Shown: one piece after another, positions 596 through 43,589 of the stretch
How the letters are laid out: every line of letters starts with the position of its first letter
Position numbering within the stretch: position 1 is the stretch's first letter
NCBI RefSeq assembly: GCF_036245865.1
Contig: NZ_BTTW01000008.1
Location: 160,396 to 224,395 of the forward strand
DNA from: Corallococcus caeni
GTDB lineage: Bacteria; Myxococcota; Myxococcia; Myxococcales; Myxococcaceae
Direction of reading: 5' to 3'
Length of the DNA: 64,000 nucleotides
Made by a program: the position numbers and the translations under genes
Notes under the pieces: model-generated
Database searches by the model: none
Told to the model about the DNA's origin: nothing
The model's input: the letters and a program-made list of their open reading frames with translations, nothing else

Positions 596-752
596 CGGCG
601 CGCTTGCGCGAGGGCAGTCTGGGCGAGCAGGCCTCGCGATTCGTCGCGGTGCGGCTTCCCCAAGGGTGAGGCCGGTCGCCTGGTGGGGCCAACCGCCGGA
701 AGCCGAAGGTCAGAAGTCAGAATCGCCCCGTCCCGGGTGCACTGCCGCGCGC

Positions 753-1241: not shown

Positions 1242-1570
1242 GATTGGCTTGCACACGAGGGCGCGGTGGAGTCCTCGTCACCCTGCAGGCGCACCACGAA
1301 GTCGCCAGGGGTGATGACATCCGCGTCGCTGAAGGGCCGCGACACCCTGCCCCGCGAGTGGCCGTTGAGCAGCGTGCCGTTGCGACTGCCCAGGTCGCTG
1401 ACGCGCAGCCCGTTGTCGGTGGCGACCAGGCGGGCATGCCGCCGGGACACAGGGTCCGACGGCAGGACCACGTCGTTGTCGGGCGCGCGCCCCAGGACGA
1501 GCGTCGCGCCCGCGACCCGCGGGTGCTTGCGCGGAGGGCGCAGCGGACCGGAGATGATGCTGTTCCACAT
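1175..1570 (-). CDS. FHA-domain protein
   Basis: The 131-aa ORF contains the FHA motifs LGRAPDNDVVLPSDPVSRRHARL and NGTLLNG. It is divergent from the downstream kinase and its tail overlaps the response-regulator 3' end. Confidence 0.65.
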   Translation of the reverse strand: MWNSIISGPLRPPRKHPRVAGATLVLGRAPDNDVVLPSDPVSRRHARLVATDNGLRVSDLGSRNGTLLNGHSRGRVSRPFSDADVITPGDFVVRLQGDEDSTAPSCASQSHDAAGMDSGAESWAGLVKAAM

Positions 1571-1768
1571 GCGCTCCCGTCCCTTTGCATGAGCCGGACA
1601 CGGCCAGGGAGGTGTGGGCGTGCTCCGAGCAGACGGGAAGGCCCCGTCGGGTCATTTTTCGCGGCAGGTCGTCCCAGCCCCGGTAGCGCGTGAACGAAGG
1701 TCTCACTCCGCGCGCAACGCCCGGAGTGGGGCCCATGGCCATGCTCTTGCACACCCATTCCTCGCGCC

Positions 1769-4339
1769 ATGGCGGCTCCTCCCTCTTCCTCGTATGGCTT
1801 CGACACGCTTCCCTGCGCTCCGGCCGACTCCCGGTCGGAGACGGTGGCGGGCGTGGCGCGTCCGTCCGTCGGCGCCTTCCCGGAGTGGGAGCCGCCTCCC
1901 CACTTCGACGGCTACCAGGTGCTCCGGTGCGTGGGCCGCGGAACCATGGGGCAGGTCTTCCTCGCGCACGACACGGTGCTGGACCGGCCAGTGGCGCTCA
2001 AGCTCCTCACCGCGGGGGGGGCGGACGCGGCGGAGCGTGAGCGGCTCCTGGTTGAGGCGCGCGCCGTCGCGAGGCTCCAGCACCCGAACGTCGTCACCCT
2101 CTACCGCGTGGGCGAGGTGGAGGGGCGGCCGTACCTCGCCTGTGAGTTCGTACGGGGGCATGGCCTGGACGCGCTGCCGCTGCCGCTGCCCGCGGCCCAG
2201 GTGGTGAAGATTGGCCTCGACCTGGCGCGTGGCCTCGCCGCGGCGCACCGCCGGGGCGTGCTGCACCGGGACCTGAAGCCCGCCAACGCCATCCTCGCGG
2301 ACTCGGGGGAGGTGAAGCTGCTCGACTTCGGCCTGGCGAAGCTGGTGGAGGCCGGGTCCGACCCCGCGCTCACGGACGACTCAAGCCTGGTGGGCACGCC
2401 GGCGTACATGGCGCCCGAGCTGTGGCGGGGCGAGCCGGCGTCGGTCCAGTCCGACATCTATTCGCTCGGGGCGCTCCTCTATCACCTGTGCTCGGGGCGG
2501 CCGCCCCACGTGGGGGCCACCCTCCATGCCCTGGTGACCCAGGTGCTACGCGAGGCGCCCTCGCCCCTGGAGGGCGTGGAGCGCGCGCTGGCGGAGCCCA
2601 TCCTCCGCTGCCTCCGCAAGACGCCCGGCGAGCGGTTCCCCCTGGCGGACGCGCTGTGCGAGGTGTTGGAAGGGCTGTCGCCCGAGCGCCGGCACCTGGC
2701 GCTGCCCGAGGGAAACCCCTACCGCGGGTTGCAGTCCTTCGAAGCGCAGCACCGCGCGCTGTTCTTCGGCCGCGACGCGGAGATGCGTGCGCTGCTCGAG
2801 CGCTTGCGCACCGAGCCGTTCCTCCTGGTCGCCGGCACCTCGGGCCTGGGCAAGTCCTCGCTCTGCAGCGCGGGAGTCCTCCCCCGGGTGAGGGAAGGGG
2901 CCCTCGACGGAAGCGGACGAGGCGGCGGAGGACGTGTCTGGGCGGTCGCCACTCTCACCCCCGGCAAGCGTCCCCTGCGGGCCCTGGCCGCCGCGATGGC
3001 GCAGCACCTCAAGGAGGACGAGGAGGCCCTCGCGCTGCGGCTGGGCGGCGAGTGGCGGGACGTCACCCGGGAGCTGCGCCGCCGTGCCCGCCAGGGTGCG
3101 CCGCTCTGCGTCTTCCTGGACCAGCTGGAGGAACTCGTCACCCTCAGCGCACCGGACGAGGCGCGGCGGATGGCGGAGGTGCTCGAGGACCTCGCGGTGC
3201 CGGGGCCGGGACTGCGCGTGCTCGCAACCTGCCGCGCTGACTTCATCGCGAGGCTCGCTTCGCTGCCGGGCATGGGAGACTCCATCAACCGGGGACTCTT
3301 CCTGCTGAGGCCGCTGTCACCCGAAGGCCTCCGCGCCGCCGTGGTGGGCCCCGCTCGCGCCATGGGTGTGGAGTTCGAGTCGGACGCCATGGTGGAGGAG
3401 TTCGTGGAGGCGGCGTCCCGCGCCGAGGGTGCGCTGCCCCTCCTCCAGTTCGCCCTGGCCGAGCTGTGGGAGGCCCGCGACACCGGCCGGCGCGTCATCA
3501 CCGCGACGGCGCTGACGGCCGTGGGCGGCGTGGTGGGCGCGCTGGCCCGGCACGCGGACGCGGTCGTGGCGCACCTGCCCCCGGAGCATCGCACCGCCGC
3601 CCGCCGCCAGCTGCTCGCGCTGGTGACGCTGGAGGGCACGCGCGCCCGGCGCACCGAGGCGGAGCTGCTCGACGGCACCCCCCAGGCCAGGGCCGCCCTG
3701 GCGGCGCTCGTCCGGGGACGGCTGCTCACGGTGGGGGAGGCACCCGAGGGGGCCATGTACGAAGTCACCCACGAGGCGCTCATCCAGTCCTGGCCGCTCC
3801 TGCGCCAGTGGCTGAAGGAGGACGCGGAGCTGCGCGTGCTCCGGGAGCGGCTCGCGGTGGCCGCCGCCGAGTGGGAGCGGCTGGGCCGCCGGCGGGAGGC
3901 CGTCTGGGGGCCACGCCAGCTCGCGGAAGCGGCCCTGCTGCCGACGTCGGAGCTGCCGGAGCGGGAGCGGGACTTCGTCGCGGCCAGCCATCAGGTCATC
4001 CACCGCGGACGGGTGGTGCGCGTGGGCCTCTCGCTCTGCGGACTCCTGATGCTCAGCGTGGTGCTGGCCGGCGTGCGCTACCGCGGCCAGGTCCGGGAGC
4101 TCGCGCGGGCCCAGCTGGCTGAAAGGCAGCACCAGACCTCCAGGCGCGACGAGCTGCTGTCGCGCCTGGCCGCCCACGATATGGAGGGGGACGGCAGCGA
4201 GGCGCGGGTCCTTGGCCGGACGCCGGTGTCCGTCCCCCAGCTCGCGCCGGGACACTACGTGCTCACCCCCGCGCCCCTGCACCCCGTGAAGGGCGGCGCG
4301 TCCTTCATCACCCGCTTCGAGACGACCTTCGGCGAATAG
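1769..4339 (+). CDS. Ser/Thr protein kinase fused to a STAND/AAA+ NTPase domain, with a transmembrane segment near the C-terminus
   Basis: The 856-aa protein has a Hanks kinase N-terminus (GxGxxG, HRDLKPAN, DFG, APE). A P-loop NTPase follows (GTSGLGKSS). Later there is a hydrophobic helix (VGLSLCGLLMLSVVLAGV) and a C-terminal region. Confidence 0.85.
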   Translation: MAAPPSSSYGFDTLPCAPADSRSETVAGVARPSVGAFPEWEPPPHFDGYQVLRCVGRGTMGQVFLAHDTVLDRPVALKLLTAGGADAAERERLLVEARAVARLQHPNVVTLYRVGEVEGRPYLACEFVRGHGLDALPLPLPAAQVVKIGLDLARGLAAAHRRGVLHRDLKPANAILADSGEVKLLDFGLAKLVEAGSDPALTDDSSLVGTPAYMAPELWRGEPASVQSDIYSLGALLYHLCSGRPPHVGATLHALVTQVLREAPSPLEGVERALAEPILRCLRKTPGERFPLADALCEVLEGLSPERRHLALPEGNPYRGLQSFEAQHRALFFGRDAEMRALLERLRTEPFLLVAGTSGLGKSSLCSAGVLPRVREGALDGSGRGGGGRVWAVATLTPGKRPLRALAAAMAQHLKEDEEALALRLGGEWRDVTRELRRRARQGAPLCVFLDQLEELVTLSAPDEARRMAEVLEDLAVPGPGLRVLATCRADFIARLASLPGMGDSINRGLFLLRPLSPEGLRAAVVGPARAMGVEFESDAMVEEFVEAASRAEGALPLLQFALAELWEARDTGRRVITATALTAVGGVVGALARHADAVVAHLPPEHRTAARRQLLALVTLEGTRARRTEAELLDGTPQARAALAALVRGRLLTVGEAPEGAMYEVTHEALIQSWPLLRQWLKEDAELRVLRERLAVAAAEWERLGRRREAVWGPRQLAEAALLPTSELPERERDFVAASHQVIHRGRVVRVGLSLCGLLMLSVVLAGVRYRGQVRELARAQLAERQHQTSRRDELLSRLAAHDMEGDGSEARVLGRTPVSVPQLAPGHYVLTPAPLHPVKGGASFITRFETTFGE

Positions 4340-4808
4340 CTCGACGACCTCGAGGCGCGCGGCGCGGACGGGCGCGCCTACCCCCACGGCGAGCAGGTGC
4401 TGCCCGCGGACGCCCACTTCGACGAGACGTACCGGCGGCAGCCCCTGGCCACGAGCCCGGCGAGTCATTACCGGAATCGAGTCGAAGGATGCTCAGACAG
4501 TGGATGCTCGGACTGGCCTTCGGGCGGCGGGCTGCAACGCGGTGGATGGCCAGGAGCGGTTCGATGAGGCCGGGAGCACCCGCTCCCAGTCCCCGGAGGT
4601 GGCCCGCGGCACGGCGCTCAACGGCCACGAGCTGAATGGCCGCGAGCTCAACGGCACCCAGCTCAGCGGGCGCGAGTTGGACGGCACTTCAGCTGACTGG
4701 AGGAAGAAGGGCGGGCGGCTCCGCGCCCTCTCGAATGCAGGAACACCGGGTGGCCTGATGAGGGCCCACCCGGTGTCCTGGCAATCCGGTGCGTCGCGGA
4801 CGGGCGCG

Positions 4809-7727
4809 CTACGGCGTGTGAGAGCCCATGTACTGGAACGTGCCCGTGGGGAACAGGTTCCACTCGGTTGCGTCGAAGCGCGCGGCGCCAATGCCGATGC
4901 CGGGATTGCGCACCAGGGTCCCCCCCAGCGGCAGGATGTCGCCGCGGGCCGAGTTGCTGGGGTCGCCCAGCACGTCCACCGTCTGCCCATCACGCGTGAG
5001 CACCATGGCCGTGGTGACCAGCCCGTTCAAGCGCAGCGTCACCTCGTCGTTGTAGTACATCGCGGACGTCACATCGAAGAAGTCGTAGAACTGCGCATCG
5101 ATGGCGACGTGCACCATGCCCGCCCAGGTTTCGGACAGCGGGACGTTGACGATGTTCATCCGGCCGTTCGCGCTGTCCCACTGGTGCAGCTCGAGCACGT
5201 AGCCCTCGGCCATCGTGTTCGGCTCGCCCGCGTAGTAGAGCTCCACCGCGAGCCGGTTGTCGCCCGCATCGAGGAACTCCGAGAAGAACAGCGTCGGGTC
5301 GCTCACGGTCACCGCGAAGCGCTGCTCGGCCGTGCCGCCGTGGCCGTCATCCGCGTGCACGGTGACGTGAGCGATGCCCAGGCCCGCCCCCGAGAGGGTC
5401 ACCATCCCGTTGCTCACGCTCGCGCCCGTCACCTGCGGCGCATCGCTGCTCACGGTGAAGGTGAGCGGGTCGCCGTCCTCGTCGGTGAAGAAGTCCGCAG
5501 CCGCGAACGTGCGCGTGTTGCCGGGGACGATGAGCCGGTCCGCGATCGGCGCGGCCACGGGCACATGGTTGGGCGGCGCCTCCACGACGGTGAGGGTGAG
5601 CGGCTCGCTGCTCGCGCGCAACTGGCTCGCGTCGACCGCGACGACGCTGAAGGTGTGCTCGCCGAGGCTCGCGCCCTGGACGGTGAACGTCGCGGTGTAG
5701 CCGCCAGTGCCCTCGCTCGCGCTCTGCGTGTCGAGCAACTGCGCGCCGTCATAAAGCTCGAAGGACGCCACGCGGTCGTTGTCGGCCGCGGCGGCGATGA
5801 GGGTGAGGGGCGTGCCCTCCGCGACCTCGGTCACCGCGCTCCCCAGGACGACCGTGGTCGGCGCGGTGACGTCCTCCCGGTTGAAGGCCACGCTCAGGAG
5901 CGCCCGCTGCCCGGCGGCCACCACCGTGCTCGCGCCGCTCACCGCCGGGCGGTATCGCCAGCCGGCATCGGAGAACTCCACGGTGGTCAGCGAGTAGTCA
6001 CCCGGGACGAGGTCGCGCAGGAGGGTGCCGTCCTGGCCCTGGAAGGACTGGCCGTCAGGGCCGGCCACCGTCACGGACTGGCTCGAGGGCACGCCCTGGA
6101 GCGCCACTTCGAGCAGGCCGGTCACCGCGTGGTACGCGACCTCGGGCTCCGCCGTCTGGCCGGCGGCGAGCGTGAAACTCCCCGCGCTCACGGTTGCCGC
6201 GTACTGGTACGTGCCATCGCTCGCGCGAGCCGCCGTGAGGACGTAGTCACCGGGCACCAGGTGCTCGAGCATGAAGGTGCCGCCCTCGTGAAGTGTCCGG
6301 GTGTATCCCTCCGGCCCGGTGAGCGTCACGTCCGGGGTGATGGCCGTCACCGTCACCGTCAGCCGCACACGCGAGTCGATGACGGCGAACGTCAGCGTGG
6401 GCGTTGCCGTCTCGCCCGCGCGGATCTCGAGCGGCACCGGCGCGGCGCGGTAGGTGAATCCATCGAACTCCACGTCCGCGCCCGAGAGGACGTACGCGCC
6501 CGGCGCGAGGTCGCCCAGCTGCCCGTTCACGGGCAGCGCGACAGGGTCCGCGCCGGCGGCCCCGAGCTTCAGGAGGGTGCTCGCTCCCTGCGGCAGGCCG
6601 GTGGAGCTCGCGACCAGGTGACCGGTGGAGGCCCGGTACGTGACGGTGAGCTGCCGCGTCTCCCCGGCCACCAGCGTGAAGTTCGCCTCGCTGAGTGCGG
6701 GCGTGTATTGGTAGGTGCCATCCGTCGCCGGCACGGCCGACAGGCCGTACTCGCCGGGCGCGAGGGCGCTGAGCGTGACGTCACCCGCCTGCGTGAATGT
6801 GGCCGAGTAGCCATGGGGGCCGCTCAGGGTCACGCTGGGGGTGATGCCGCTCACCGCGGGGATGCTCACGGCGATGCGAGCGTCGATGGCGGCGAACACC
6901 AGCGTGGCCGTGGCGATTTCACCGACCTTCACCTCGAAGACGACCGGAGCGGCGCGGTAGGTGATGCCACCGGACTTCACGTCGGGCGCCTTGAGGGTGA
7001 AGGTCCCCGGGGTCAGGTTGTCCACCATGTTGCCCGCCGGGATGCGAAAGGTGGCCCCCTGCGCATTCTGCAGCCTGAGGGACGCGCTCGCGCCGCTCGG
7101 CAGGCCGGTCGAGCCCAACTGCGCGGCACCGCTGAGCGTCATGCCGCCGGACGCCGCGGTCTGCCCCGCGCTCACGGTGACGCTGCTGGACTGCCCGACA
7201 GGGCCGCTGATGTTGTAGGTGCCGGGCGTGAGGTCCTCCAGCTTGTAGGTGCCGCTGCCGGTCAGGGTCTGGCTGTAGCCGCCCGGGCCGCTCACCGTGA
7301 CGGACGTGACGGGCTCGGCGGCGGCGGCATGGCCGCGGCGGGCCATGGCCTCGACAGCCGCGTTGCCGTCCGCGCTCACGGTGACCACCAGCGCGCCGGT
7401 GATGGGGACGTAAGCGATGTCGAGCGTGGGTGTCTCGCCCGCGCTGACCGTGAGGGTGAGGGGAGGCGCCGCGAAGGTGTACCCATCCTGCTTATAGGGC
7501 TCGCCCGTCACCGTGTACGTCCCGGGGGGCAGTTGGAGCTGGCCGGTCGCATCGACGCGATAGACCTGCCCGTCGGCGCCGGTGAGGGTCACCCGGGTGA
7601 GCACCTCCTCGGGGGCGGAGATGGTGACGACGGCATTGGCATTGCCAATGACAACGGGGGCGGGCGCTTGACCGCAGGCGGTAAGCAGGAGGAGGGCCGT
7701 GAGGAACAGCAGGGATGTGCGCTTCAT
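4809..7727 (-). CDS. Large surface lipoprotein with tandem Ig-like repeats and a lamin-tail-like (LTD) C-terminal domain
   Basis: The track ORF is 4809..7802 and the likely start is the internal MKRTSLLFLTALLLLTACG (lipobox LTAC). At least seven repeats of about 85 aa follow the pattern VT(L/V)xGPxGY...LxPGxYxL. Confidence 0.8.
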   Translation of the reverse strand: MKRTSLLFLTALLLLTACGQAPAPVVIGNANAVVTISAPEEVLTRVTLTGADGQVYRVDATGQLQLPPGTYTVTGEPYKQDGYTFAAPPLTLTVSAGETPTLDIAYVPITGALVVTVSADGNAAVEAMARRGHAAAAEPVTSVTVSGPGGYSQTLTGSGTYKLEDLTPGTYNISGPVGQSSSVTVSAGQTAASGGMTLSGAAQLGSTGLPSGASASLRLQNAQGATFRIPAGNMVDNLTPGTFTLKAPDVKSGGITYRAAPVVFEVKVGEIATATLVFAAIDARIAVSIPAVSGITPSVTLSGPHGYSATFTQAGDVTLSALAPGEYGLSAVPATDGTYQYTPALSEANFTLVAGETRQLTVTYRASTGHLVASSTGLPQGASTLLKLGAAGADPVALPVNGQLGDLAPGAYVLSGADVEFDGFTYRAAPVPLEIRAGETATPTLTFAVIDSRVRLTVTVTAITPDVTLTGPEGYTRTLHEGGTFMLEHLVPGDYVLTAARASDGTYQYAATVSAGSFTLAAGQTAEPEVAYHAVTGLLEVALQGVPSSQSVTVAGPDGQSFQGQDGTLLRDLVPGDYSLTTVEFSDAGWRYRPAVSGASTVVAAGQRALLSVAFNREDVTAPTTVVLGSAVTEVAEGTPLTLIAAAADNDRVASFELYDGAQLLDTQSASEGTGGYTATFTVQGASLGEHTFSVVAVDASQLRASSEPLTLTVVEAPPNHVPVAAPIADRLIVPGNTRTFAAADFFTDEDGDPLTFTVSSDAPQVTGASVSNGMVTLSGAGLGIAHVTVHADDGHGGTAEQRFAVTVSDPTLFFSEFLDAGDNRLAVELYYAGEPNTMAEGYVLELHQWDSANGRMNIVNVPLSETWAGMVHVAIDAQFYDFFDVTSAMYYNDEVTLRLNGLVTTAMVLTRDGQTVDVLGDPSNSARGDILPLGGTLVRNPGIGIGAARFDATEWNLFPTGTFQYMGSHTP

Positions 7728-7975
7728 GGATGGGTCTCGGTCTGTGAACTGACTGCGACCCGCGCTTGAGCAAGGAGCGCACCAGGGGAATTTTGAGGGC
7801 AACGCTGGATCCGGCGCGCCGGGGCTGGTGCGCCGGAACCGGGTCGTTCTCCGATGTCCATGGAAAATGACCCGCCAGGACTGTCAGGAATTGGCCGGCC
7901 GCTGGGGGCAAACCAGACACGGGCTCGCGGTGCTGAAGGCCTGTCACTTCACGGTACGGCGTTTGCTCTGGCCTC

Positions 7976-8731
7976 GTGGCCATGAGCTCCCGGGGTGTGG
8001 ATTCCAATTCGCGGTGCCGACGCCGTCCTGCTTCGGCAGGTGGGCAGCCGCGCGAGCGGGGCTTCGCCCTGCTCGGAGCCCTGGGAGTCACCCTTGCGCT
8101 CACATTGGCGGTGACCATCACCTGGCGCATGGTGCGCCAGGAGGCCGACGTCCAGGGTGACCTGCGCCGACAGAAGGAGGCGTTCTTCGCGGCGGAGGCG
8201 GGACTGGCGGAAGGGCGCGAGACGATGCGCCTGCTGCTCGGGAACGCGGAGACCTACAACCCGGCCATCACCGCGCTCGGCGCTCCCGCGAGCGAGCCAG
8301 GACTCGGCTCCCCGACGCAGCCCTGGTACGACGTGCTGCCAGGCGCCAGCAGTGCTGGCGACGGCTGGACCCCGTACGCGCTCACCCCGGAGGACATGGC
8401 GCCCTCGGAGCTGGCGAGCGGGAGCGGAGACGTCTACGCGGACTACCCGCGTCAGGCGAACGTCCGCTACCGGGTCTTCGTCCACGACGACGCGGACGAC
8501 GGCGACTTCACCGAGGACAGCAACCGTCAGGTCTGGCTCGTCGCCGTGGGAGAGGTGGTCGGCGGCAGCGGGCGTCCCACGCGCGCCGTGGTCCAGGCCC
8601 TCATCACCAACGACAACGCCCAGCAGCTCACGGGCCCCGGTTGCGTGAACCGGGGCTGCGGTCCCAGCAACTCCTTCAACAACACCCAGGACCGCCAGGC
8701 GCCGGCCACCCAGACGGTCCGCTTCTTCTGA
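7976..8731 (+). CDS. PilX-like type IV pilus minor pilin / assembly protein (PilX_N-type N-terminus)
   Basis: A hydrophobic N-terminal helix (RGFALLGALGVTLALTLAVTI) is followed by EAFFAAEAGL, which is typical of PilX_N. The gene sits directly upstream of pilY1-like and minor pilin genes. The exact start is uncertain. Confidence 0.55.
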   Translation: MAMSSRGVDSNSRCRRRPASAGGQPRERGFALLGALGVTLALTLAVTITWRMVRQEADVQGDLRRQKEAFFAAEAGLAEGRETMRLLLGNAETYNPAITALGAPASEPGLGSPTQPWYDVLPGASSAGDGWTPYALTPEDMAPSELASGSGDVYADYPRQANVRYRVFVHDDADDGDFTEDSNRQVWLVAVGEVVGGSGRPTRAVVQALITNDNAQQLTGPGCVNRGCGPSNSFNNTQDRQAPATQTVRFF

Positions 8732-8759
8732 GGATTGCAAAGACATGCATGCGGCATCC

Positions 8760-9203
8760 ATGCGAGCTCATCTGATTCCCTGGCTCCTCCTGCTCGCGCC
8801 GCTCGCCCGCGCGGAGAACCGGGGAGAGGACTTGTTCAACCAGGCGTGCTCGCGCTGTCACATCGCCCAGGCAGCGACGCGGGCCTCGCCCACCTCGGGA
8901 CTCGTCGGGGCCTCCAAGGGCAGTGGCCCCAACCTGGGCGAGCTGATGCCTCGCCGCACCTACGAACAGGTCCGCGCGTGGATCCAGGCGCCCCAGCGGC
9001 AACGGCCCGAAACGGGGTGCGACACCCGCATGCTGGCGCCCTCGGACGTGGGCGCGCTCATGTCCTATCTCGCCACTGTCTCGCAGCCTCCCGAACCGCC
9101 GCGGGCGGAGCGGTTGCGGCAGGAACTGGCGCAGCAGGTTGCCGAGCGGCGTGCCCGGCAACGACAGGCCGGGACGAGCACCGGCTCGAAGGAGCCGCGA
9201 TGA
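8760..9203 (+). CDS. Secreted class I c-type cytochrome
   Basis: It has a signal peptide (MRAHLIPWLLLLAPLARA) and a single CSRCH heme-binding motif preceded by DLFNQA. The stop overlaps the pilY1-like start (ATGA). Confidence 0.65.
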   Translation: MRAHLIPWLLLLAPLARAENRGEDLFNQACSRCHIAQAATRASPTSGLVGASKGSGPNLGELMPRRTYEQVRAWIQAPQRQRPETGCDTRMLAPSDVGALMSYLATVSQPPEPPRAERLRQELAQQVAERRARQRQAGTSTGSKEPR

Positions 9204-12200
9204 CCCGTGCGCTCCGTCGCTTCATCGCTCCCGCGCTCCTGCTGGCACCGCTGCTCGCCGGGGCGGAAGGTCTCAGTCAGCTCTGCGCGGACGTGCTGGA
9301 CCAGGACAAACAGCCCACGTTCCAGGCCAGCGGCTTCGACACGAACCAGTCCATCCTCATCACGAGCGAGAACCCGGCACGCCTTCAGCTCAACACCAAC
9401 CTGACGGTGCTGGACCCCGAGCACATCTCCTTACCGTTCGACCAGCACGTCACCATCAGCTACGTGTTCGAGTCCGCCGGCGCATCCCACGCGCTTGGCT
9501 ACATGTACCTGGATGATGTGAAGGCACGCGGCTACGCGGATGAAAGTGGGAACCTCGTGGATGCCAATGGCAATGGCATCCTGGACCTGCACGAAGACCT
9601 GTACAACCTGGCTCCCACCAGCGGCTCCAGGGCGCGTCCCTATATCGGGCCCTACACGTCGGACGGTGTTCCCAATCGCCGGTGCAACGTCTCGTTCACC
9701 TCGGGCGGCTTCACCTACAACCAGCCCGAGCTGGCCATGAGTGGCGGCTGCGCCAATACCTTCAGCTCCCAGCAGAGCGTGAGGGATGCGCGGCCGGGAC
9801 AGACGGGCACCACCATCAAGGTGGACCTGGTGGGCAGCACCATGGGCGGCACTCCCACCGCGCCCGCCTTCTCCGACCGGGGCGTCTTCAACTTCATTCC
9901 CAACCTGCTGGAGCCGCCGGACCCGCGCAACAACAAGCTGGGGCTGGGGAAGATGGTCTTCCTGCTGTCCGACGACGACACGGACACGACCGTCTTCAAC
10001 AACCTCGCCCCGGTCGCGGACTCGAGCACCACCGCCGACGGCGTGCCCGACTACGACGTCTCCAAGTACGACGCCAACGGCCTCCAGCGCGCCACCAATC
10101 CGGACACGGGCATCACCACGTACGACCGGACGGTGGACCTGGGGCAGCTTCAAGGCGGCAAGGAAATCGTCTTCTTCCTCGTCGTCTTCTACGACGCGAC
10201 CCACGCCCCCACGTCGACGGGCGGTACCGTCTACCCGTGCCTGCGCCGTGACTCGGCGGACAAGTGCACCCTCCACTTGCGCACGTCCGTCTCCGTCTTC
10301 TTCTCCAAGGCGTCGTGGAACCTGGACCAGAACGCCGTGGCTGGCACCACGGTGGCCGAGCGCAACATCGGCTGCAGCTACAATGCGAGCTGCGACCCGA
10401 ACAGTCCCAGCAGCTCCGCCGGGGCCTGCACGGTGGTCAACTCCACCCAGAAGCTGTGCGGCTGGCTGGAGGGCCCGAAGACCAGCACCAACTCCACGCT
10501 GGGCCGGTTGAACACGTCGGCCTACGGCAACCTCGACATGCCCATGGAGAAGGTCTCCATTCCCCGGCCCGCCAACAACCGCATGCCCCACGTCATCGTG
10601 GGGGCGCCGAGCACGGACCCGTTCCGGTGGATCCTCGGGTTCGAGGACCTCAATGGAGGCGGCGACCGCGACTTCAACGACGTCGTGTTCATGATCAACA
10701 AGGAGAACGGCGGAGGCGTGCGCTCGGGCACCGTCTCCGGTGACATCTCACCTTCCGTCGCCGAGGACTTCACCATCACCAAGGTCCGCTTCCGGCGTCA
10801 GGACGACCTCGCGCCCGCGCCGCGCACCTGTTCCGGTGGCGCTCCGTGCTGGTCGGAGGAGCTGCCGGGCGCGTGCCGGCCCCCCGGAGGGCCGCTGCCC
10901 ACCATCCGGTATTCCATCGCCGTGGACTGCCGCGTCTGCAGCGATGGCGCCTGCACCCGCAATCCCAACCCCGCCTGGTATCCGGTGGATTTCCCCAACA
11001 CCTCACCCCCCACCCAGCAGGTGGAGCTGGACATGCTGGCGCTGGGCTTCACCGGCTCACAGCTGTGCTGGAAGGCGGACATCACCAGCCCGAACGAGCG
11101 GTGCCGTCCCATCATCGATAACGTCGACGTGGGCTACCAGGCCGTACGCGCCGGCACGTACGCGCGCGCGTCGCCCTCCACCGTGGGCAACGCCATCATC
11201 TGGGGCACGAACGAGACCCCGGGCCGCGGCTGGGGCACGGGCTGGACGCCGCCCGGCTATGCCGGCATGCCCGCCGCCAGCCAGCGGGCCTACGATGACA
11301 GCAAGGACCAGTCGGTGCGGGGGCACCTCTCCTTCCGCTCGCTCTACGACCCGGAGGACCCCACCCGGACGAGCGTCGTCGAGCGGTGGGATGGCGGTCG
11401 CGTCATGGCGGTCGCGCTGGCGCAGGGCCAGGACCCCACCACCCGCCGCCTCTTCACCATGGACGGCACCGGGGCGCGCACGGACATCGAAACGGTCGCC
11501 GCGGACAGCGCGTCCACCAGTCCGCTCTTCCCCGACTCCCTCTGTGACCAGGTGGTCAACGGCCGCTATGTCTTCGACCTGAACGACGACGGGACGTGCG
11601 GGACGCCCACCCATCCGTTCAAGCAGATTGACGACGACACCAACGACCGCGCCTTCCTGCGCGAGTGGCTGTATGGCTGGGAGGACCTGCACCCGCCGGC
11701 CCCCTCGAATGCGCGGCGCGCCTGGCCCATGGGCGGCGTCAACCAGTCCACCGTGGCGCTCGCGGTGCCGCCGTTCTTCGACGCCTGGTACCAGGGCGCC
11801 CGCCCCGCGGAGCGCGACCAGTACCGCAAGAACTTCATGGAGCCGCTGAAGGACCGTCGCACCGTGGCCTATGTCGGCACGATGAGCGGCTACCTGCATG
11901 CCTTCGACGCGGGGGCGTTCCGCACCGATACACGCGATGGCTGCGTGGACGCGGACCAGCGGCGCGGCTACTTCGCGCCGACCTCATGCGGCGCGGGCAC
12001 CTCCCCGCGCGACTATGGCACCGGCCAGGAAGCGTTCGCCTACCTCCCGAGGCTCCTGCTCGACCGCTACGTCAACCGCTACGTGCGGTACCTGGGCTCG
12101 GGCTCGCTGCCTCGTCCGCAGGTGGACGCCTCGCCCACCATCGCCAACGTGGACCTCGGCGTGCCCGGCAAGCCCGCGTGGACGATGTCCAGCTCGCCCT

Positions 12201-13426
12201 CGCGGACGGAGGGCGCCAAGACGGTGCTGGTGTCCGCCACGGGCAAGGGGAGCCCGGCCGTCTTCGCGCTCGACATCACCCGTCCGGACCTTCCGGCCCG
12301 ATTCCCGCTGCCCCTCTGGGAGTTCAGCCTGGCGGACACCGCGGTGCAGCAGGCCTTCTCGGATGCGCGCGCCACGGACACCTCCTCTCCCAAGAAGGTG
12401 AAGCTCCCGGATGACGCTGGCTCGCGGCACGCTCCGAGCGTGGGGCGCCTGGCGTGGGGCTCCAGCAAGGACAAGGGCGTCTGGGCCGCGGTCGTCGGCA
12501 CGGACTACGTCCCCAGTTCGGGCCGGGCGGGCACGCTCTACCTGCTCGACATGAAGACGGGGCGCCCGCTCGACCTGGGCACCACCGCCGCCGGCCGCAT
12601 GGCGGGGGTCATCACCCTGGACGACGGCTCGGGCATCGCCGCCGAGTCCACGCTGGTGGACGTGAACCGGGATGGCACCTACGAGGTCCTCTATGTTCCG
12701 ACCACGGCCGGCCGCGTGTACCGCGTCAACCTGGACCAGGTCGACACGGGCGCGCCGCCAGGCGCCAAGGTGAGCCGGTGCCGCGTGGCGGACGCCCCGG
12801 TGGACGTATCGTTGAGCAGCGGCGCGGCCCAGTCCCAGGACCAGAGCTACCAGCAGCTCTACTCCAACCTGGCCGTGAGGGTGGTGGACGCTCCCGACGG
12901 CCCCGTGGTGCGCTTCTACTTCGGCACGGCCGACAATCCGGACGAGTCCTCGGACGGGCCGGCGAACAACACCTCCTACCGCTACCACCTGCTGGGCTAC
13001 GAGGACCCGGACCCCACGGGCACCCGGGGATGCGTGGCGCTGACCCCGCTCTGGGTAAAGCCGCTGGATGCGGGGCAGGCGGTGTGGGGCGGCGTCTCGC
13101 TCTCCGAGGACCAGGTCTATGCCACCACGGCCGTCGGGAAGGCCGCGGACATTTGCAGCCTGAGCAGCACGCAGAGCGGACGGTTCTACGCCGTCGGCCA
13201 GCTGGGCGGAGGGACGCAGGGGCCCACGATGTCGAGCGCGCCCATCCAGGGCCACGGTGTCAGCGCGCCGGTGGTGCACGACGAGCACCTCTTCGTGCTC
13301 ACCGCGGACGGAAAGCTGCTGATGGTGGGCGACGACTCCTGGAACAACGACACCGGAAGCGCGGCGACGACGCGCTCGCGGGTCTTGCTCTGGGAGCCCG
13401 CGCCCGAAGGACGGTTGCCGAAATGA
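9200..13426 (+). CDS. pilY1: PilY1-like type IV pilus tip adhesin/assembly protein
   Basis: The 1408-aa protein has a signal peptide (MTRALRRFIAPALLLAPLLAGA). Its C-terminal region carries the PilY1 beta-propeller signature (VAYVGTMSGYLHAFDAGAF...EAFAYLP). It sits in a minor-pilin operon. The long track ORF 8735..13426 shares this frame and the start is taken at the ATG at 9200. Confidence 0.8.
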   Translation: MTRALRRFIAPALLLAPLLAGAEGLSQLCADVLDQDKQPTFQASGFDTNQSILITSENPARLQLNTNLTVLDPEHISLPFDQHVTISYVFESAGASHALGYMYLDDVKARGYADESGNLVDANGNGILDLHEDLYNLAPTSGSRARPYIGPYTSDGVPNRRCNVSFTSGGFTYNQPELAMSGGCANTFSSQQSVRDARPGQTGTTIKVDLVGSTMGGTPTAPAFSDRGVFNFIPNLLEPPDPRNNKLGLGKMVFLLSDDDTDTTVFNNLAPVADSSTTADGVPDYDVSKYDANGLQRATNPDTGITTYDRTVDLGQLQGGKEIVFFLVVFYDATHAPTSTGGTVYPCLRRDSADKCTLHLRTSVSVFFSKASWNLDQNAVAGTTVAERNIGCSYNASCDPNSPSSSAGACTVVNSTQKLCGWLEGPKTSTNSTLGRLNTSAYGNLDMPMEKVSIPRPANNRMPHVIVGAPSTDPFRWILGFEDLNGGGDRDFNDVVFMINKENGGGVRSGTVSGDISPSVAEDFTITKVRFRRQDDLAPAPRTCSGGAPCWSEELPGACRPPGGPLPTIRYSIAVDCRVCSDGACTRNPNPAWYPVDFPNTSPPTQQVELDMLALGFTGSQLCWKADITSPNERCRPIIDNVDVGYQAVRAGTYARASPSTVGNAIIWGTNETPGRGWGTGWTPPGYAGMPAASQRAYDDSKDQSVRGHLSFRSLYDPEDPTRTSVVERWDGGRVMAVALAQGQDPTTRRLFTMDGTGARTDIETVAADSASTSPLFPDSLCDQVVNGRYVFDLNDDGTCGTPTHPFKQIDDDTNDRAFLREWLYGWEDLHPPAPSNARRAWPMGGVNQSTVALAVPPFFDAWYQGARPAERDQYRKNFMEPLKDRRTVAYVGTMSGYLHAFDAGAFRTDTRDGCVDADQRRGYFAPTSCGAGTSPRDYGTGQEAFAYLPRLLLDRYVNRYVRYLGSGSLPRPQVDASPTIANVDLGVPGKPAWTMSSSPSRTEGAKTVLVSATGKGSPAVFALDITRPDLPARFPLPLWEFSLADTAVQQAFSDARATDTSSPKKVKLPDDAGSRHAPSVGRLAWGSSKDKGVWAAVVGTDYVPSSGRAGTLYLLDMKTGRPLDLGTTAAGRMAGVITLDDGSGIAAESTLVDVNRDGTYEVLYVPTTAGRVYRVNLDQVDTGAPPGAKVSRCRVADAPVDVSLSSGAAQSQDQSYQQLYSNLAVRVVDAPDGPVVRFYFGTADNPDESSDGPANNTSYRYHLLGYEDPDPTGTRGCVALTPLWVKPLDAGQAVWGGVSLSEDQVYATTAVGKAADICSLSSTQSGRFYAVGQLGGGTQGPTMSSAPIQGHGVSAPVVHDEHLFVLTADGKLLMVGDDSWNNDTGSAATTRSRVLLWEPAPEGRLPK

Positions 13427-13944
13427 AGACCCGGGGACTCAGCAAAGGCCGCGGCGTCGCGCTGATGGAGACGATGGTCGCTTCGGTGGTCCTCGTCATG
13501 GGGCTGATGGCGGCCCTGACGCTGATGGTGGAGACGAACCGCGCCAACCGCCGGACCCTCACCGCCACCCAGGCGCAGACCCTCGCCGAGCAGACCCTGG
13601 AGAACATCGTCTCCATGGGCTGCACGCGCGCACCGCCGTGCGGCAACATCGCCACGCTGGATGGCAGCCGCTCCAAGGTGTGGCAGACCGCCGCCGGGGC
13701 GGTGCTGACGACACGGCCCCAGGCGCCCATCGTCGCGCGCGAATACGAGATCGCGGTGGACGTGGATGGCGCCGTCCAGCCGGGCCTCAACGAGAACGGC
13801 TCCCTTGGACAGCCGCCCTTGAACCGCTCGCTTCGGGGGATGGGGCCCGGCAACCTCGTCAACGTGCGGGTCAGCGTCAGCTGGGTCGAGCCGGCCCGGT
13901 CCGGACGTCAGGTGGTCGTCCTCCAGACGCGGATGGCGCCATGA
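13423..13944 (+). CDS. Type IV minor pilin (PilV-like) with a class III signal peptide
   Basis: The N-terminus (KGRG|VALMETMVASVVLVMGL) has Glu at +5. The start ATG overlaps the pilY1 stop (ATGA), and its own stop overlaps the next gene. Confidence 0.65.
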   Translation: MKTRGLSKGRGVALMETMVASVVLVMGLMAALTLMVETNRANRRTLTATQAQTLAEQTLENIVSMGCTRAPPCGNIATLDGSRSKVWQTAAGAVLTTRPQAPIVAREYEIAVDVDGAVQPGLNENGSLGQPPLNRSLRGMGPGNLVNVRVSVSWVEPARSGRQVVVLQTRMAP

Positions 13945-15131
13945 AACGCACTCCTTCCTGGATGCGTGGCTTCACGTTGGTGGAGCTCATGATTGCCGCC
14001 GCGGTGTCCGTGCTGCTGCTCACGCTGGCCCTGAGCGCCAGCGCCCAGGTCCAGCGGCGCCTGGTGCTCGAACAGCAGACGATGTCGGCGCAGGTCACCG
14101 GGCGCGCCGTCAAGGAGTTCCTGGGCACCGAGGTCCTCCGCGTCGGCGTGGGCATGGGGAACGCGACGGTGGTGTTCTCACAAGGGGATTTGCGCCAGGG
14201 CTTCACCGTGTGGTCGGAGCCGGACCTGTCGCAGGGCCGTCCCCCCCTGCTGGCCGCGGACCCCGGCTTCGCGCTTCCGCCCGCGAGCGGGCCGTACGCG
14301 GGCATGGCCTCGGATGCCCTGCAGCTGTGGTGGGGGGACACCCGGGGACTGATTGCGTTGGACGACTGTCCCGGCGGAAAGGCCTATCGGGTCCGCGAGG
14401 GCGGCCCCTCGCGGTTCTGCACGGCGCCCGCGCCCTCCTCGGAGCTCCAGCCCCAGGCGGGGCAGTCCACGCCGGCGTTCCTCGTCAATTCCGGCCTGGC
14501 GCTGGCCTGCCACGTGGAGGTGAGCCAGGTGCGGGTGGCGGCCCGGGAGGTCTCCGCCTTCGTCGGCAGGGGGACGTCATCCACCCAGAGCGGCCCTTGC
14601 GCGGACGCGCAGGACCCCGTGTGGGAGCGGACGGGCTGGCTGCTGCTGAGGGCCCAGGGCTCGTCGTACCGGGTGAACTGGGCCACGGGCAATCCCGTCC
14701 TGGAGTACCTCGCGTCGGGGGCCACCACGTGGACCGCCATGAGCCGCGATGTCGAGCGTCTGAAGATTCGGCAGGGGATCATCGACCTGTCACAGCCACA
14801 GCTGCCCCCGCGGTGGTTTCCGGACGCGGCGGCCGGGCGGCCCGCCGTCGATGCCTGCACACGGGGCCAGCCGGAGTGCGCAGTGGACGCGGGGCCTGCG
14901 GGCGCTCCCGAGGCCCCTGCCTCCACGGATGCGGAGCTCCGGCGGCTCCTCCAGGAGCGCGTCCGGTCCGTGGAGGTGACGCTCGTCGTCCGCACGCCGC
15001 GCCGGGACCTTTCCTCCATCCAGACGGACACGACCGATGACGAGGGGCTTCCCAGGGACGGGTACAACCGGCGGACGCTCACCTTCCGGGTGAGCCTCCG
15101 GAACAACGCTTTCGCGGGAAGGCTGCCCTGA
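13941..15131 (+). CDS. Type IV minor pilin (PilW-like)
   Basis: The 396-aa protein has a classical prepilin N-terminus (MRGFTLVELMIAAAVSVLLL). The start is taken at the internal ATG of track ORF 13638..15131 and overlaps the previous stop (ATGA). Confidence 0.7.
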   Translation: MKRTPSWMRGFTLVELMIAAAVSVLLLTLALSASAQVQRRLVLEQQTMSAQVTGRAVKEFLGTEVLRVGVGMGNATVVFSQGDLRQGFTVWSEPDLSQGRPPLLAADPGFALPPASGPYAGMASDALQLWWGDTRGLIALDDCPGGKAYRVREGGPSRFCTAPAPSSELQPQAGQSTPAFLVNSGLALACHVEVSQVRVAAREVSAFVGRGTSSTQSGPCADAQDPVWERTGWLLLRAQGSSYRVNWATGNPVLEYLASGATTWTAMSRDVERLKIRQGIIDLSQPQLPPRWFPDAAAGRPAVDACTRGQPECAVDAGPAGAPEAPASTDAELRRLLQERVRSVEVTLVVRTPRRDLSSIQTDTTDDEGLPRDGYNRRTLTFRVSLRNNAFAGRLP

Positions 15132-15148
15132 CCGGGCCCGAGGACTCC

Positions 15149-15796
15149 ATGAGTGGCTTTCGAGGAATGACTTTGCTGGAGCTGCTGGCGGGGCTGGCCG
15201 TGCTCGGCATCCTGGCGACGCTGGCGCTGGGGGAGCTGGGCGGCAGCATGGAGCGCCAGCGTGAGAGCGGTGCCGCTCGCGACCTCGTCTCCGCGGCGCT
15301 GCAGGCGCGGCAGCGAGCCCAGGCCACCCATCAACCCATCCGCTTCGTCGTGGATGCGAACGTGCCGCTGGCGGATGGCACCGTGCGGAACGTGGCCCGC
15401 TGGGAGCGGCCGCGGTGCGACAACACCTGGGACAGTGACTCCTGCCCGGCCACGAGCTGCGAGGCCACGACGTGCCGGCAGACGCCATCGTGCTGCGACG
15501 AGGTGGGGGCGGACATCCCGCTGCCCCCGTCGATGAACGCCTCGCCCGTGCATGGGTTGTGTTTCCTGCCCACCACGGGACGGCCCGTGCGCGTCGAGGG
15601 CGACCTGACTTGCATGCTGTCCAGCCGGGGGCGGCCTGACGCGCTCGCGGCCGCCGCGCCCGGGACGCTGAAGCTCACCTATTCGTCCGGGCGTGCCCCC
15701 ACGCTGTTCCAGGTCGAAGGGCTGACCGGCCTGGTGAGCCTCCTGGACTGCGATGCGCTGTCCGCGAGCGCCACCGCGGGCAAGGACTGCCCGTAG
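15149..15796 (+). CDS. FimT/GspH-like minor pilin
   Basis: It has a prepilin N-terminus (GMTLLELLAGLAVLGILATLA) and a Cys-rich C-terminal part. It is the last gene of the pilin operon. Confidence 0.7.
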   Translation: MSGFRGMTLLELLAGLAVLGILATLALGELGGSMERQRESGAARDLVSAALQARQRAQATHQPIRFVVDANVPLADGTVRNVARWERPRCDNTWDSDSCPATSCEATTCRQTPSCCDEVGADIPLPPSMNASPVHGLCFLPTTGRPVRVEGDLTCMLSSRGRPDALAAAAPGTLKLTYSSGRAPTLFQVEGLTGLVSLLDCDALSASATAGKDCP

Positions 15797-15832
15797 GACG
15801 CAGCCCGAAGGGGAGGAGGCCCGGGCTGCGTC
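15797..15832. terminator. GC-rich hairpin between convergent genes, likely a bidirectional terminator
   Basis: An 11-bp perfect inverted repeat (GACGCAGCCCG / CGGGCTGCGTC) flanks a 14-nt loop. It lies between the fimT-like stop (15796) and the lipoprotein stop (15849). There is no clear T-tract. Confidence 0.45.
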
Positions 15833-15848
15833 AGGGACAATCCCGCTG

Positions 15849-16421
15849 CTACAGCGACTCCTCCACCTTGTCACCGTAGCGGATGCGCCCCTTCAGGCCC
15901 AGGCAGAGGACGGGCTCGACTTCCGTGTCCTTGTCCGGCATGCGCGCGGTGAAGCCCACCGCCACCTTCAGCATTCCATCCTGCGTGTAGGGGAACAGGT
16001 TGACGGCGTCGTTGCCCGGCAGGTTCAACTCCGTGCTGGCACCGGCCTCCGTGCGGCTCCATTCCGTCAGCACGACGGGGCCGCCGCTCACCGTGGCGTT
16101 GTCCATGCCCAGCTTCACGGCGTCCAGGAAGCCGAGGTCGCCGCCGACGGCCCGGAAGGTGGCGCGACGGAAGCGCACGTCCGCGCTGACCATGTCCATG
16201 TCCTCGGGGAGCAGGCTCTTCACGTCCACCTCCAGGCTGAGGGTGGGCGAGAACGTGCCCTCCACCGGCAGGTTCGAGGCCTGGAACGCGTAGGGCTTCA
16301 TCCGGGTGCAGATCTCCGGGATGTCCACGTCGCCGAAGAGCAGTTCGCCGCAGCCGGACAGCAGGGAGGCACCGGCGAGCAGCACCAGGCGCAGGGGAGG
16401 GGAATCGAGCATCGACTTCAT
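15849..16421 (-). CDS. Hypothetical lipoprotein
   Basis: The 190-aa protein has a signal peptide with lipobox LLSGC. Confidence 0.55.
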   Translation of the reverse strand: MKSMLDSPPLRLVLLAGASLLSGCGELLFGDVDIPEICTRMKPYAFQASNLPVEGTFSPTLSLEVDVKSLLPEDMDMVSADVRFRRATFRAVGGDLGFLDAVKLGMDNATVSGGPVVLTEWSRTEAGASTELNLPGNDAVNLFPYTQDGMLKVAVGFTARMPDKDTEVEPVLCLGLKGRIRYGDKVEESL

Positions 16422-16454
16422 CGAGGAACTCCAGTGGGGAAGCCGCAGGGACGC

Positions 16455-17123
16455 TCAGCCCAGGTACAGCAGGAAGCCGAGCTTGAGGGTGGGAAGGGTG
16501 CCGCTCACGCGTGGCGCGGTGATGCTCTCCACGGTGACGTCGGAGGCGCGGGCCTTGGACCAGTCCTCCACGCCGTGCACGCGGGTGCGCACGTAGGACA
16601 GGCCTCCGCGCAGGAAGAAGGAGAAGCGCCGCGCACTGCCCAGCTCCAGGCCCAGATGGACGTTGGCGAAGTCGTAGCCCACGCGCTCGAGCAGCAGGCC
16701 CTCCGCCCCGAGCGTCCCGGCGACTCGCTCGATGGCCCGGCGTGCATTGCCCTCGGGCAGCCGGCCCACCTCCGCCGTCAGCGTGGGGCGCACGAAGGCT
16801 TGGAGCGGGATGAAGGACGCGCCGAAGCGGCCGCCCAGGCTGACGGCGTTGTGCACGACACCGCCGTGCAACCGCAGCATGCGGAGCGGGCGCAGCGCCA
16901 GCGACACACCGGCTCCCTCGGGAATGCCCGTGTCCAGCATCAGCCCCAGCCAGGGCAGGCCGGGCGCGGCGGACGCCACCGGAGCAGCGGGCACCTCGTG
17001 CGTGACTGGCACCGCTTGGGCAGCAGGTGCCTCGTGCGCGGCTGGCGCCGCATGAGCAGCGGGTGCCTCATGAGCCGCGACCCGCGGGTTGAACATCAGC
17101 GCACCGAGCAGCATCAACGACAT
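16455..17123 (-). CDS. Secreted protein with an N-terminal His/Ala/Pro-rich tandem repeat, possibly an outer-membrane protein
   Basis: The track ORF is 16455..17237 and the likely start is MSLMLLGALMF (signal peptide). It is followed by repeats AAHEAPAAH / VTHEVPAAP and a C-terminal hydrophobic/aromatic end. Confidence 0.5.
   Translation of the reverse strand: MSLMLLGALMFNPRVAAHEAPAAHAAPAAHEAPAAQAVPVTHEVPAAPVASAAPGLPWLGLMLDTGIPEGAGVSLALRPLRMLRLHGGVVHNAVSLGGRFGASFIPLQAFVRPTLTAEVGRLPEGNARRAIERVAGTLGAEGLLLERVGYDFANVHLGLELGSARRFSFFLRGGLSYVRTRVHGVEDWSKARASDVTVESITAPRVSGTLPTLKLGFLLYLG
16984..17083. repeat. Three imperfect tandem repeats of about 33 bp encoding the His/Ala/Pro repeat
   Basis: The unit gcagcGggCacctcGtgCg recurs three times at a period of about 33 bp inside CDS 16455..17123. 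Confidence 0.5.
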
Positions 17124-17414
17124 GAGCGGGGAAACCTCGTGGAGAGAAACGCTCTCCCGGAGGTCCATGGACCTGGGCCTCGCGGATGGCCGAGGAGCGT
17201 GTCCTTCGGGACTGCAATCACGGGTCCATCCCTCCACACGCCGGCCCTCGCCCTGAACGCGAGCCCGGTGGTGCGCGGGTGACCGGGTGATTCACACTCC
17301 AGTGCCACGGTCCTACTCGCCTGTTGCGGGGACCGCCGCTCGGACGCTCACGAGCGGGCCATTGGCCCCGAAACTGAATCACCGCTCCGGGAAACACCGA
17401 CCGGAGTACCCACG

Positions 17415-17975: not shown

Positions 17976-17981
17976 GCCCCC

Positions 17982-43423: not shown

Positions 43424-43589
43424 GCTTCGGGCGGCCGGGCAGGCTTGGGACGGGGGCTTGTCATTCCATGCGCCCTGCGCGGTGAGCAGGCAGGGGGGCA
43501 GGCAACGTCCCAGGGGAGGAAGCCGACCGGGGGATGGAATGCCCAATCTCCTCCGAGGAGGAGAAGGCATGGTCCTGCCCGGCAGGGGA

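Follow-up and report, generated by a model that had tools for sequence, protein, structure and literature searches.

The subject of this analysis is a predicted tfcP-family gene at positions 8760 to 9203 (plus strand) of a 64-kb stretch of Corallococcus caeni DNA, here called the window. The gene encodes a noncanonical mono-haem cytochrome c precursor of 147 amino acids (aa), an assignment that draws on Pfam, on orthologues and on homology to TfcP, a cytochrome studied in Myxococcus xanthus, and it is located inside a cluster of genes for minor pilins and the pilus protein PilY1. The product is 100% identical to a 147-aa protein named "c-type cytochrome [Corallococcus caeni]" (P0001 among the homologues considered below).

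A cytochrome gene coupled to pilY1

The precursor N-terminus reads MRAHLIPWLLLLAPLARA and, after the predicted cleavage site, ENRGEDLFNQACSRCH. Its first 18 residues (8760 to 8813) were read from the sequence by eye as a predicted signal peptide, with a charged n-region, a hydrophobic core and A-R-A ahead of the predicted cleavage, and the predicted mature end, ENRGEDLF, aligns with TDEGKLAF, the start of an M. xanthus TfcP construct lacking the signal peptide. The 147-aa product, which begins with MRAHLIPWLLLLAPLARA and then ENRGEDLFNQACSRCHIAQ, carries one CxxCH in the whole protein, the haem-attachment motif C30-S-R-C-H34 at 8847 to 8861, and matches Pfam Cytochrom_C (PF00034) at 25.0 bits (gathering cut-off, 21.3), with profile positions 3 to 89 of 90 covered. 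An earlier note on this DNA had described a secreted mono-haem c-type cytochrome from the CSRCH motif, and this description agrees with the predicted signal peptide, the one CxxCH and the PF00034 match. Further along the protein are Cys87 (9018 to 9020), the predicted distal axial haem ligand and equivalent of M. xanthus TfcP Cys91 according to its invariance and a profile alignment, and, at 9084 to 9179, the Pro-rich linker QPPEPP (aa 109 to 114) and a charged C-terminal helix (aa 115 to 140), which were delimited by alignment and AlphaFold2. QPPEPP is followed by RAERLRQELAQQVAERRARQRQ, and the last residues are GSKEPR. In NCBIfam, no specific family was found for the cytochrome, PilX or PilY1 of the window.

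An in-frame ATG at 8745, with GAGGA 10 nt upstream, was considered as an alternative start and rejected; of three orthologues, two carry an in-frame stop at this point and the other lacks the ATG. As none of the orthologues has this ATG, 8760 was taken as the conserved start.

The genes on both sides of the cytochrome gene are on the same strand. Upstream, a pilX-like minor pilin gene (7982 to 8731, plus strand, 249 aa) matches PilX_N at 25.9 bits against a cut-off of 25.5 and occupies the position of M. xanthus pilX1 (mxan_0364). Downstream, pilY1 (9200 to 13426, plus strand) encodes a 1408-aa protein of the PilY1.1 type with an N-terminal DUF4114 region and a C-terminal beta-propeller (DUF4114, 35.4 bits; T4P_PilY1, 28.5 bits); it has 24 Cys residues (the clade 1.1 median is 23) and shows the features by which PilY1.1-type proteins were recognized. 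The placement of the cytochrome gene between a pilX-like and a pilY1-like gene, as first described, is thus borne out by the Pfam matches on either side, and so is the coupling to pilY1 that had been read from the overlap of the two genes: the stop TGA of tfcP (9201 to 9203) overlaps the ATG of pilY1 (9200 to 9202), which gives an ATGA at 9200 to 9203, and a Shine-Dalgarno sequence, AAGGAG (9189 to 9194), is located inside the 3' end of tfcP. tfcP is co-translated with pilY1 through this internal Shine-Dalgarno sequence and the ATGA overlap (junction 9189 to 9203, plus strand).

Further ATGA overlaps are found at the pilY1/pilV and pilV/pilW junctions. The pilV-like gene (13423 to 13944, plus strand) encodes a 173-aa minor pilin with a prepilin-like KGRG/VALME sequence; because it has no Pfam match, its name is taken only from its position, which is that of pilV1 (mxan_0361). 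It is followed on the same strand by a pilW-like gene (13941 to 15131, 396 aa, N_methyl motif RG/FTLVE, position as pilW1, mxan_0360) and by a fimU-like gene (15149 to 15796, 215 aa, G/MTLLE) with matches to N_methyl and IV_pilin_GFxxxE and a weak match to GspH, which has the position of fimU1 (mxan_0359). The gene order of the window, pilX-tfcP-pilY1-pilV-pilW-fimU, is that of M. xanthus cluster_1, which consists of mxan_0364 (pilX1), mxan_0363 (tfcP), mxan_0362 (pilY1.1), mxan_0361 (pilV1), mxan_0360 (pilW1) and mxan_0359 (fimU1) (PMC8833165). The six genes from 7982 to 15796 are a PilY1.1-type priming and tip-complex operon.

Conservation of the gene and of its haem ligands

Eight related loci were available for comparison, seven (L001 to L007) and one JGI metagenome contig; L001 was obtained from a single-protein scan of genome contigs, and further synteny was established through exact-protein look-ups. 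L003 to L005 are orthologous Corallococcus clusters with cytochromes 74-77% identical to the window protein, L002 is a second C. caeni cluster (48% identical), L001 is from C. exercitus (43% identical), and L006 and L007 are from two metagenome-assembled Myxococcaceae. The earlier note had proposed to check whether homologous clusters keep the cytochrome gene, and all do (8/8): it lies between pilX and the PilY1 gene with its stop abutting or overlapping the start of the latter, followed, where the contig is long enough, by a PilY1 with DUF4114 and then three minor pilin genes. The gaaggag...ATGA coupling junction is also present in L003 to L005, and a one-base TGATG overlap is found in L001, L002, L006 and L007. 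In L003 to L005 the pilX orthologues are 246-248 aa long and the pilV-like orthologues are 173 aa long. Ratios of nonsynonymous to synonymous substitution rates (dN/dS), calculated among orthologues by the method of Nei and Gojobori, were 0.18-0.31 for tfcP (0.24-0.31 for the window gene compared with its three orthologues), 0.24-0.30 for pilY1 and 0.28-0.35 for pilX. The values for tfcP are similar to those of its neighbours, and tfcP is therefore, like them, under purifying selection.

These data also bear on whether the frame is a gene at all. In a genome of 70% GC that is rich in long spurious open reading frames (ORFs), a frame this short (147 aa), with a Pfam score barely above the cut-off, might be suspected of being a chance ORF or the remnant of a decaying gene, its CxxCH being fortuitous. 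However, third-position GC is 0.84 in the cytochrome frame compared with 0.70 in the antisense ORF, the start is conserved, no related cluster examined is without an orthologue or paralogue, the motifs are invariant, and a profile search found 86 relatives at E ≤1e-10. Because the gene is conserved and under purifying selection, a chance origin is refuted and is scarcely credible. The observations that the earlier note would have taken as arguments against its reading, absence from orthologous clusters, relaxed selection or loss of the CxxCH, were likewise not made, the gene being present in the orthologous clusters with dN/dS like that of its neighbours and the CxxCH being kept in 90/90 family members.

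Among 26 aligned Corallococcus-type homologues, the CxxCH, W74, P78, C87, T89 and R90 are invariant, whereas the Met residues of the window protein (M63, M91 and M101) are all variable. A family profile searched against 1.84 billion cluster representatives gave 591 matches at E ≤1e-3, of which those at E ≤1e-10 are the 86 mentioned above, and conservation was assessed in a set of 90 short single-CxxCH family members. C87, like the CxxCH, is present in each of these 90, and no other candidate ligand was found; apart from the start Met and His34, no column of the 90 short members holds Met or His at more than 31%. In comparisons of the family profile with Protein Data Bank (PDB) sequences, which gave matches to cytochromes c at E values of 1.6e-6 to 1e-3, C87 falls on the Met ligand of 2yev_B, the cytochrome c domain of subunit II of the Thermus caa3 oxidase (E 1.6e-6), and also on the conserved IPGTKM Met (Met80) of the mouse testis-specific cytochrome c, 2aiu_A. 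The position of the sixth ligand of canonical class I cytochromes c is therefore occupied by Cys, where Met or His would be expected. The earlier note had used the label "class I cytochrome c"; the window protein belongs to the cytochrome c sequence family (PF00034) but, as judged from the alignments, is no canonical member of that class. The invariance of the distal Cys in all 90 short members is a modest addition of the present work.

Compared with canonical class I cytochromes c, the window protein shares an N-terminal CxxCH helix, a central aromatic residue and Pro, and a C-terminal helix of the form L..D...L..YL, as well as the PF00034 match. Unlike them, it has Cys in place of the sixth-ligand Met and an extra charged C-terminal extension, and its gene is located apart from genes for respiration or photosynthesis; the midpoint potential of its M. 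xanthus homologue is about 550 mV below their approximately +250 mV (PMC8833165). A likeness in distal ligand and low potential is seen with DsrJ, a tri-haem protein of Allochromatium vinosum with a distal Cys thiolate and a very low potential (cited in PMC8833165). DsrJ and other c-type haems with His/Cys ligation, however, belong to multi-haem proteins or sulfur-metabolism complexes, while the window protein is mono-haem and encoded in a type IV pilus operon.

Relationship to M. xanthus TfcP and probable function

TfcP (Mxan_0363) was characterized in M. xanthus by Herfurth et al. (PNAS 2022) and has a signal peptide, one CxxCH, and Cys91 replacing the usual distal Met or His; towards its C-terminus, a short Pro-rich region leads into a charged helix of 30 residues (PMC8833165). 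It is conserved in the minor-pilin/PilY1 clusters of Myxococcales (PMC8833165), and a 2026 survey described tfcP directly upstream of pilY1.1, translationally coupled to a neighbouring gene, as the conserved layout of PilY1.1-type clusters (PMC13190605). The presence of a cytochrome in a pilus-tip operon, which the earlier note called unexpected, had thus been published, including for Corallococcus (PMC8833165, PMC13190605).

The window protein was compared with M. xanthus TfcP through peptides translated from the cloning and mutagenesis primers of that study (SI Table 3 of PMC8833165). For tfcP these comprise MNRLILL, TDEGKLAF, LAFEK, HVVPRK, QIKPKTG-[C91]-DTRL, LALSLHPTPP and the C-terminal RSQGKK. 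Protein P0030 contains 6/9 primer-derived TfcP peptides exactly and is therefore regarded as a nearly identical TfcP of the Myxococcus type; over 123 residues, the window protein is 37% identical to P0030 (E 5e-23). The sequence TGCDTR around the distal Cys is identical in the window protein and M. xanthus TfcP, and the M. xanthus tfcP/pilY1.1 junction (AAGTGATGCGC) shows stop/start coupling as in the window. M. xanthus TfcP was not among the 12 proteins listed by a homologue search with the broad alignment A3.

Like TfcP, the window protein has a type I signal peptide, predicted here, a single CxxCH near residue 30 (C31xxCH in M. xanthus), a Cys about 57-60 residues after the CxxCH in the context TGCDTR with no conserved Met or His, a Pro-rich linker followed by a charged C-terminal helix, and a similar size (147 compared with 153 aa); its gene lies between pilX and a DUF4114-type pilY1 whose start overlaps its stop, with pilV, pilW and fimU following. 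The two differ in overall sequence (about 35-37% identity to the Myxococcus type, P0030), in the C-terminus (GSKEPR compared with RSQGKK), in the overlap with pilY1 (ATGA compared with TGATG), and in the number of TfcP-bearing clusters, of which C. caeni has at least two and M. xanthus one; in addition, the window protein is known from its sequence, while the M. xanthus protein was characterized by experiment. With the predicted signal peptide, the CxxCH, the distal Cys, the linker and helix, the homology and the gene context all in agreement, the window gene almost certainly encodes a member of the TfcP family ("T4aP formation cytochrome c protein"). The cytochrome and PilY1 of the window are an already described TfcP/PilY1.1 module and not a new feature.

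Several properties of the M. xanthus protein are relevant to the function of the window protein. A MalE-TfcP fusion binds haem, and its UV-Vis bands, the absence of a Soret shift and the electron paramagnetic resonance g values show that the haem has His/Cys ligation, whereas the C91M variant does not keep it; midpoint potentials of -304 to -320 mV (approximately -312 mV) were found (PMC8833165). TfcP variants with changes in the haem site or C91, or with a deletion of the helix, fail to accumulate (PMC8833165). The protein is diffuse in the periplasm, non-polar and undetected in purified pili, and deletion of tfcP does not affect growth (PMC8833165). At approximately 30-150 µM Ca2+, the deletion causes loss of PilY1.1, the minor pilins and pili, which is rescued by at least 1 mM CaCl2; with Ca2+ chelated, TfcP cannot stabilize PilY1.1, and a D1173A substitution in the PilY1.1 motif D1165xDxDNxxD1173 makes TfcP required even at high Ca2+ (PMC8833165). 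TfcP itself does not bind Ca2+, and in the model proposed by the authors a redox-inert cytochrome, repurposed for this task, makes transient contact with PilY1.1 in its Ca2+-free form and promotes its binding of Ca2+ (PMC8833165).

The PilY1 of the window carries an EF-hand-like Ca2+ motif, DVNRDGTYE, in its beta-propeller (aa 1154 to 1162; 12659 to 12685, plus strand), and DVNRDGTYE-VLYVP aligns with the D1165xDxDNxxD1173 motif of M. xanthus PilY1.1 (primer-derived RDGNYD-VMYVP). A second EF-hand-like motif, DANGNGILD (D-x-N-x-N-G-x-x-D, then LHED), is located at aa 121 to 129 (9560 to 9586), and it is kept in 7/7 PilY1.1-type proteins compared (window and L002 to L007). This N-terminal motif is a candidate for a further calcium site, separate from the one in the beta-propeller on which the M. 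xanthus work was done.

The best explanation, and a very likely one, is that the window gene encodes the C. caeni TfcP, a haem protein that does not carry electrons and that stabilizes PilY1 at low calcium. The precursor would be exported by Sec, with the signal peptide probably cut after Ala18, and one haem c would be covalently attached to C30 and C33, with His34 and the thiolate of Cys87 as predicted iron ligands. This ligation would give a very low redox potential, and the protein would therefore be ill-suited to electron transfer, whether respiratory or extracellular; the haem would mainly serve to fold and stabilize a small domain bearing the Pro-rich linker and the charged C-terminal helix. 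On the basis of its homology to M. xanthus TfcP, the soluble periplasmic protein would transiently meet newly exported, calcium-free PilY1 and promote Ca2+ binding at the EF-hand-like site (DVNRDGTYE) of its beta-propeller. PilY1, and through PilY1 the four minor pilins, could thus be shielded from degradation at low environmental calcium, and Ca2+-loaded PilY1 would enter the priming and tip complex of the type IVa pilus without the cytochrome.

The earlier note had suggested a different role, in redox-linked control or in a pilus variant for extracellular electron transfer. The Cytochrom_C match, the single CxxCH and the signal peptide, together with co-expression with pilus tip proteins, would also be expected of a genuine electron carrier, that is, a canonical class I cytochrome c serving the pilus or its tip. 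However, such a protein should have a conserved Met or His as the sixth ligand where a Cys is found, and the homologue, at approximately -312 mV, is a non-polar periplasmic protein that is absent from purified pili and whose deletion has no effect on growth (PMC8833165). Known extracellular electron-transfer cytochromes are multi-haem proteins with canonical ligation, while the window protein has a single CxxCH and one haem, and Myxococcus and its relatives are aerobes (PMC8833165). Given the properties of the homologue and the TfcP signature of the window protein, the electron-transfer reading is not supported, and a role as electron carrier is highly improbable. What stands of the earlier reading is its descriptive part; its functional speculation, an electron-transfer pilus variant or a new redox link, is not supported.

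Haems with His/Cys ligation serve as sensors in other proteins, and the haem of the window protein could, accordingly, alter its ligation or conformation so that PilY1 stability, and with it piliation, follows oxygen, periplasmic redox state or a small ligand, which is the redox-linked control raised by the earlier note. That Cys87 is absolutely conserved (90/90) shows that the ligand matters, the haem peroxidase activity of MalE-TfcP is gone after reduction with dithiothreitol, which shows the haem to be redox-active, and the authors of the TfcP study could not rule out a signalling role (PMC8833165). On the other hand, the M. xanthus C91M and C91H variants merely fail to accumulate, which fits a structural role, and added calcium bypasses the entire tfcP deletion phenotype (PMC8833165). 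At approximately -312 mV, moreover, the haem would stay oxidized in the periplasm of a strict aerobe, the operon encodes no partner signalling domain detectable by Pfam, and a sensor is not needed for the data. A sensor function is thus improbable.

Several points weigh against the stabilizer reading preferred here, or limit how far it can be carried. The comparison with M. xanthus TfcP was made through primer-derived peptides and the proxy P0030. Even in M. xanthus, direct contact between TfcP and PilY1.1 is a proposal, and the stimulation of calcium binding is a model (PMC8833165). The last Ca2+-ligand position of the PilY1 motif is Glu in the window and not Asp; Glu is also found in L003 to L005 and L007, and Asp is found in L002, L006 and M. 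xanthus PilY1.1 (D1173). While the AlphaFold2 model shows a helix over aa 115 to 140, with block-mean confidence (pLDDT) of 81-94 across aa 101 to 140, it is moderate overall (mean pLDDT 69.8, with residues 35 to 55 below 50), and a Foldseek search of the PDB with this apo model gave cytochromes c6 and c as best matches at non-significant E values (≥2); a poor model is expected because it was built without haem. Finally, the window protein belongs to one of at least three diverged Corallococcus subgroups, and its functional equivalence with the M. xanthus protein is inferred. That the function of M. xanthus TfcP carries over to the window protein is probable, a level of confidence chosen because identity between the window subgroup and the protein examined in M. 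xanthus is only about 35-37%.

The main use of these results is in accurate annotation, as the protein now named "c-type cytochrome" should be named TfcP-like. The underlying biology, a cytochrome c repurposed as a calcium-dependent stabilizer of a pilus adhesin, has already been published, and the present work adds that the TfcP family is larger than first reported, that gene order is constant in the loci examined and that Corallococcus has several diverged copies.

Diverged Corallococcus copies and neighbouring genes

The Corallococcus TfcP homologues (P0001 to P0026) can be divided into at least three subgroups, with 38-50% identity between them: the window type (P0001 to P0005), an "NQGKK" type (P0006 to P0020) and a "QGSK/QGNK" type (P0021 to P0023, P0025 and P0026). 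The proteins named as from C. caeni, C. macrosporus and C. exiguus are each spread over 2-3 subgroups. C. caeni has at least two TfcP clusters, those of the window and L002, and there are Corallococcus genomes with two or three diverged TfcP/PilY1.1 modules. For C. coralloides, a single cluster encoding a TfcP orthologue was reported (PMC8833165). The cytochrome and the PilY1 of each module may have evolved together as dedicated partners, and the strictly conserved His/Cys haem may in addition work as a redox or thiol switch controlling how stable PilY1 is; this proposal is speculative and we consider it unlikely. If it were true, piliation would integrate calcium and redox signals. The conservation data could be of use in planning work on how TfcP-PilY1 pairs co-evolve or interact.

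The second C. caeni cluster (L002) also encodes, two genes upstream of pilX (8325 to 8663 of that locus), a canonical small cytochrome c of 112 aa with CKNCH and a downstream NPKMKAY Met, which matches Pfam Cytochrom_C and Cytochrome_CBB3 and has no counterpart in the window cluster. This cluster has mfd downstream and polysaccharide-synthesis genes upstream.

The flanks of the window-type six-gene cluster differ among Corallococcus species (window 1 to 7802 and 15849 to 20120, compared with L003 to L005). L003 and L005 share a CmlA_N/Lactamase_B gene downstream, and L004 has a giant ORF of 14,529 aa. In the window, two small ORFs on the minus strand precede genes for a response regulator (17415 to 17975) and a GAF histidine kinase (17982 to 20120). 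As the flanks are not conserved, the cluster appears to behave as a movable module or to sit in a variable region.

Immediately upstream of the operon, the minus-strand ORF at 4809 to 7802, which is divergent from pilX, has gene-like GC content by codon position and weak matches to Big_7, Big_9 and fn3-like (immunoglobulin (Ig)-like) domains. In this region ORFs of approximately 1000 aa overlap on opposite strands, and the sequence indicates that the minus-strand one is a real, Ig-domain-rich gene. The plus-strand ORF at 4500 to 7769 was considered as a member of the operon and rejected as a high-GC shadow ORF with no Pfam match. With the gene 5' of pilX on the minus strand, the transcription unit would therefore start at pilX, and the intergenic region between the two (7803 to 7981, plus strand) is the presumed location of the operon promoter. 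A scan of 7600 to 16600 for the sigma-70 consensus found no promoter, including in 7803 to 7981, and terminators in 7600 to 16600 were no more frequent than in shuffled controls.

Across the 64-kb window, only two CxxCH motifs occur in six-frame ORF segments of at least 80 aa. The only other ORF that bears one, at 44688 to 45221 (minus strand), encodes a lipoprotein-like product of approximately 160 aa (containing LLFASAC) with a C-terminal CHGCH and a sub-threshold match to Cytochrome_P460 (23 bits, cut-off 27); it adjoins a BrkB-family gene (43395 to 44630) and a gene for a protein with a weak C2-domain match (45222 to 45989, minus strand). In an 856-aa protein encoded at 1769 to 4339 (plus strand), a Ser/Thr protein kinase and a "novel STAND NTPase 1" domain (nSTAND1, E 1e-103) are fused, which suggests a signalling, possibly defence-type, product that appears to be unrelated to the pilus operon.

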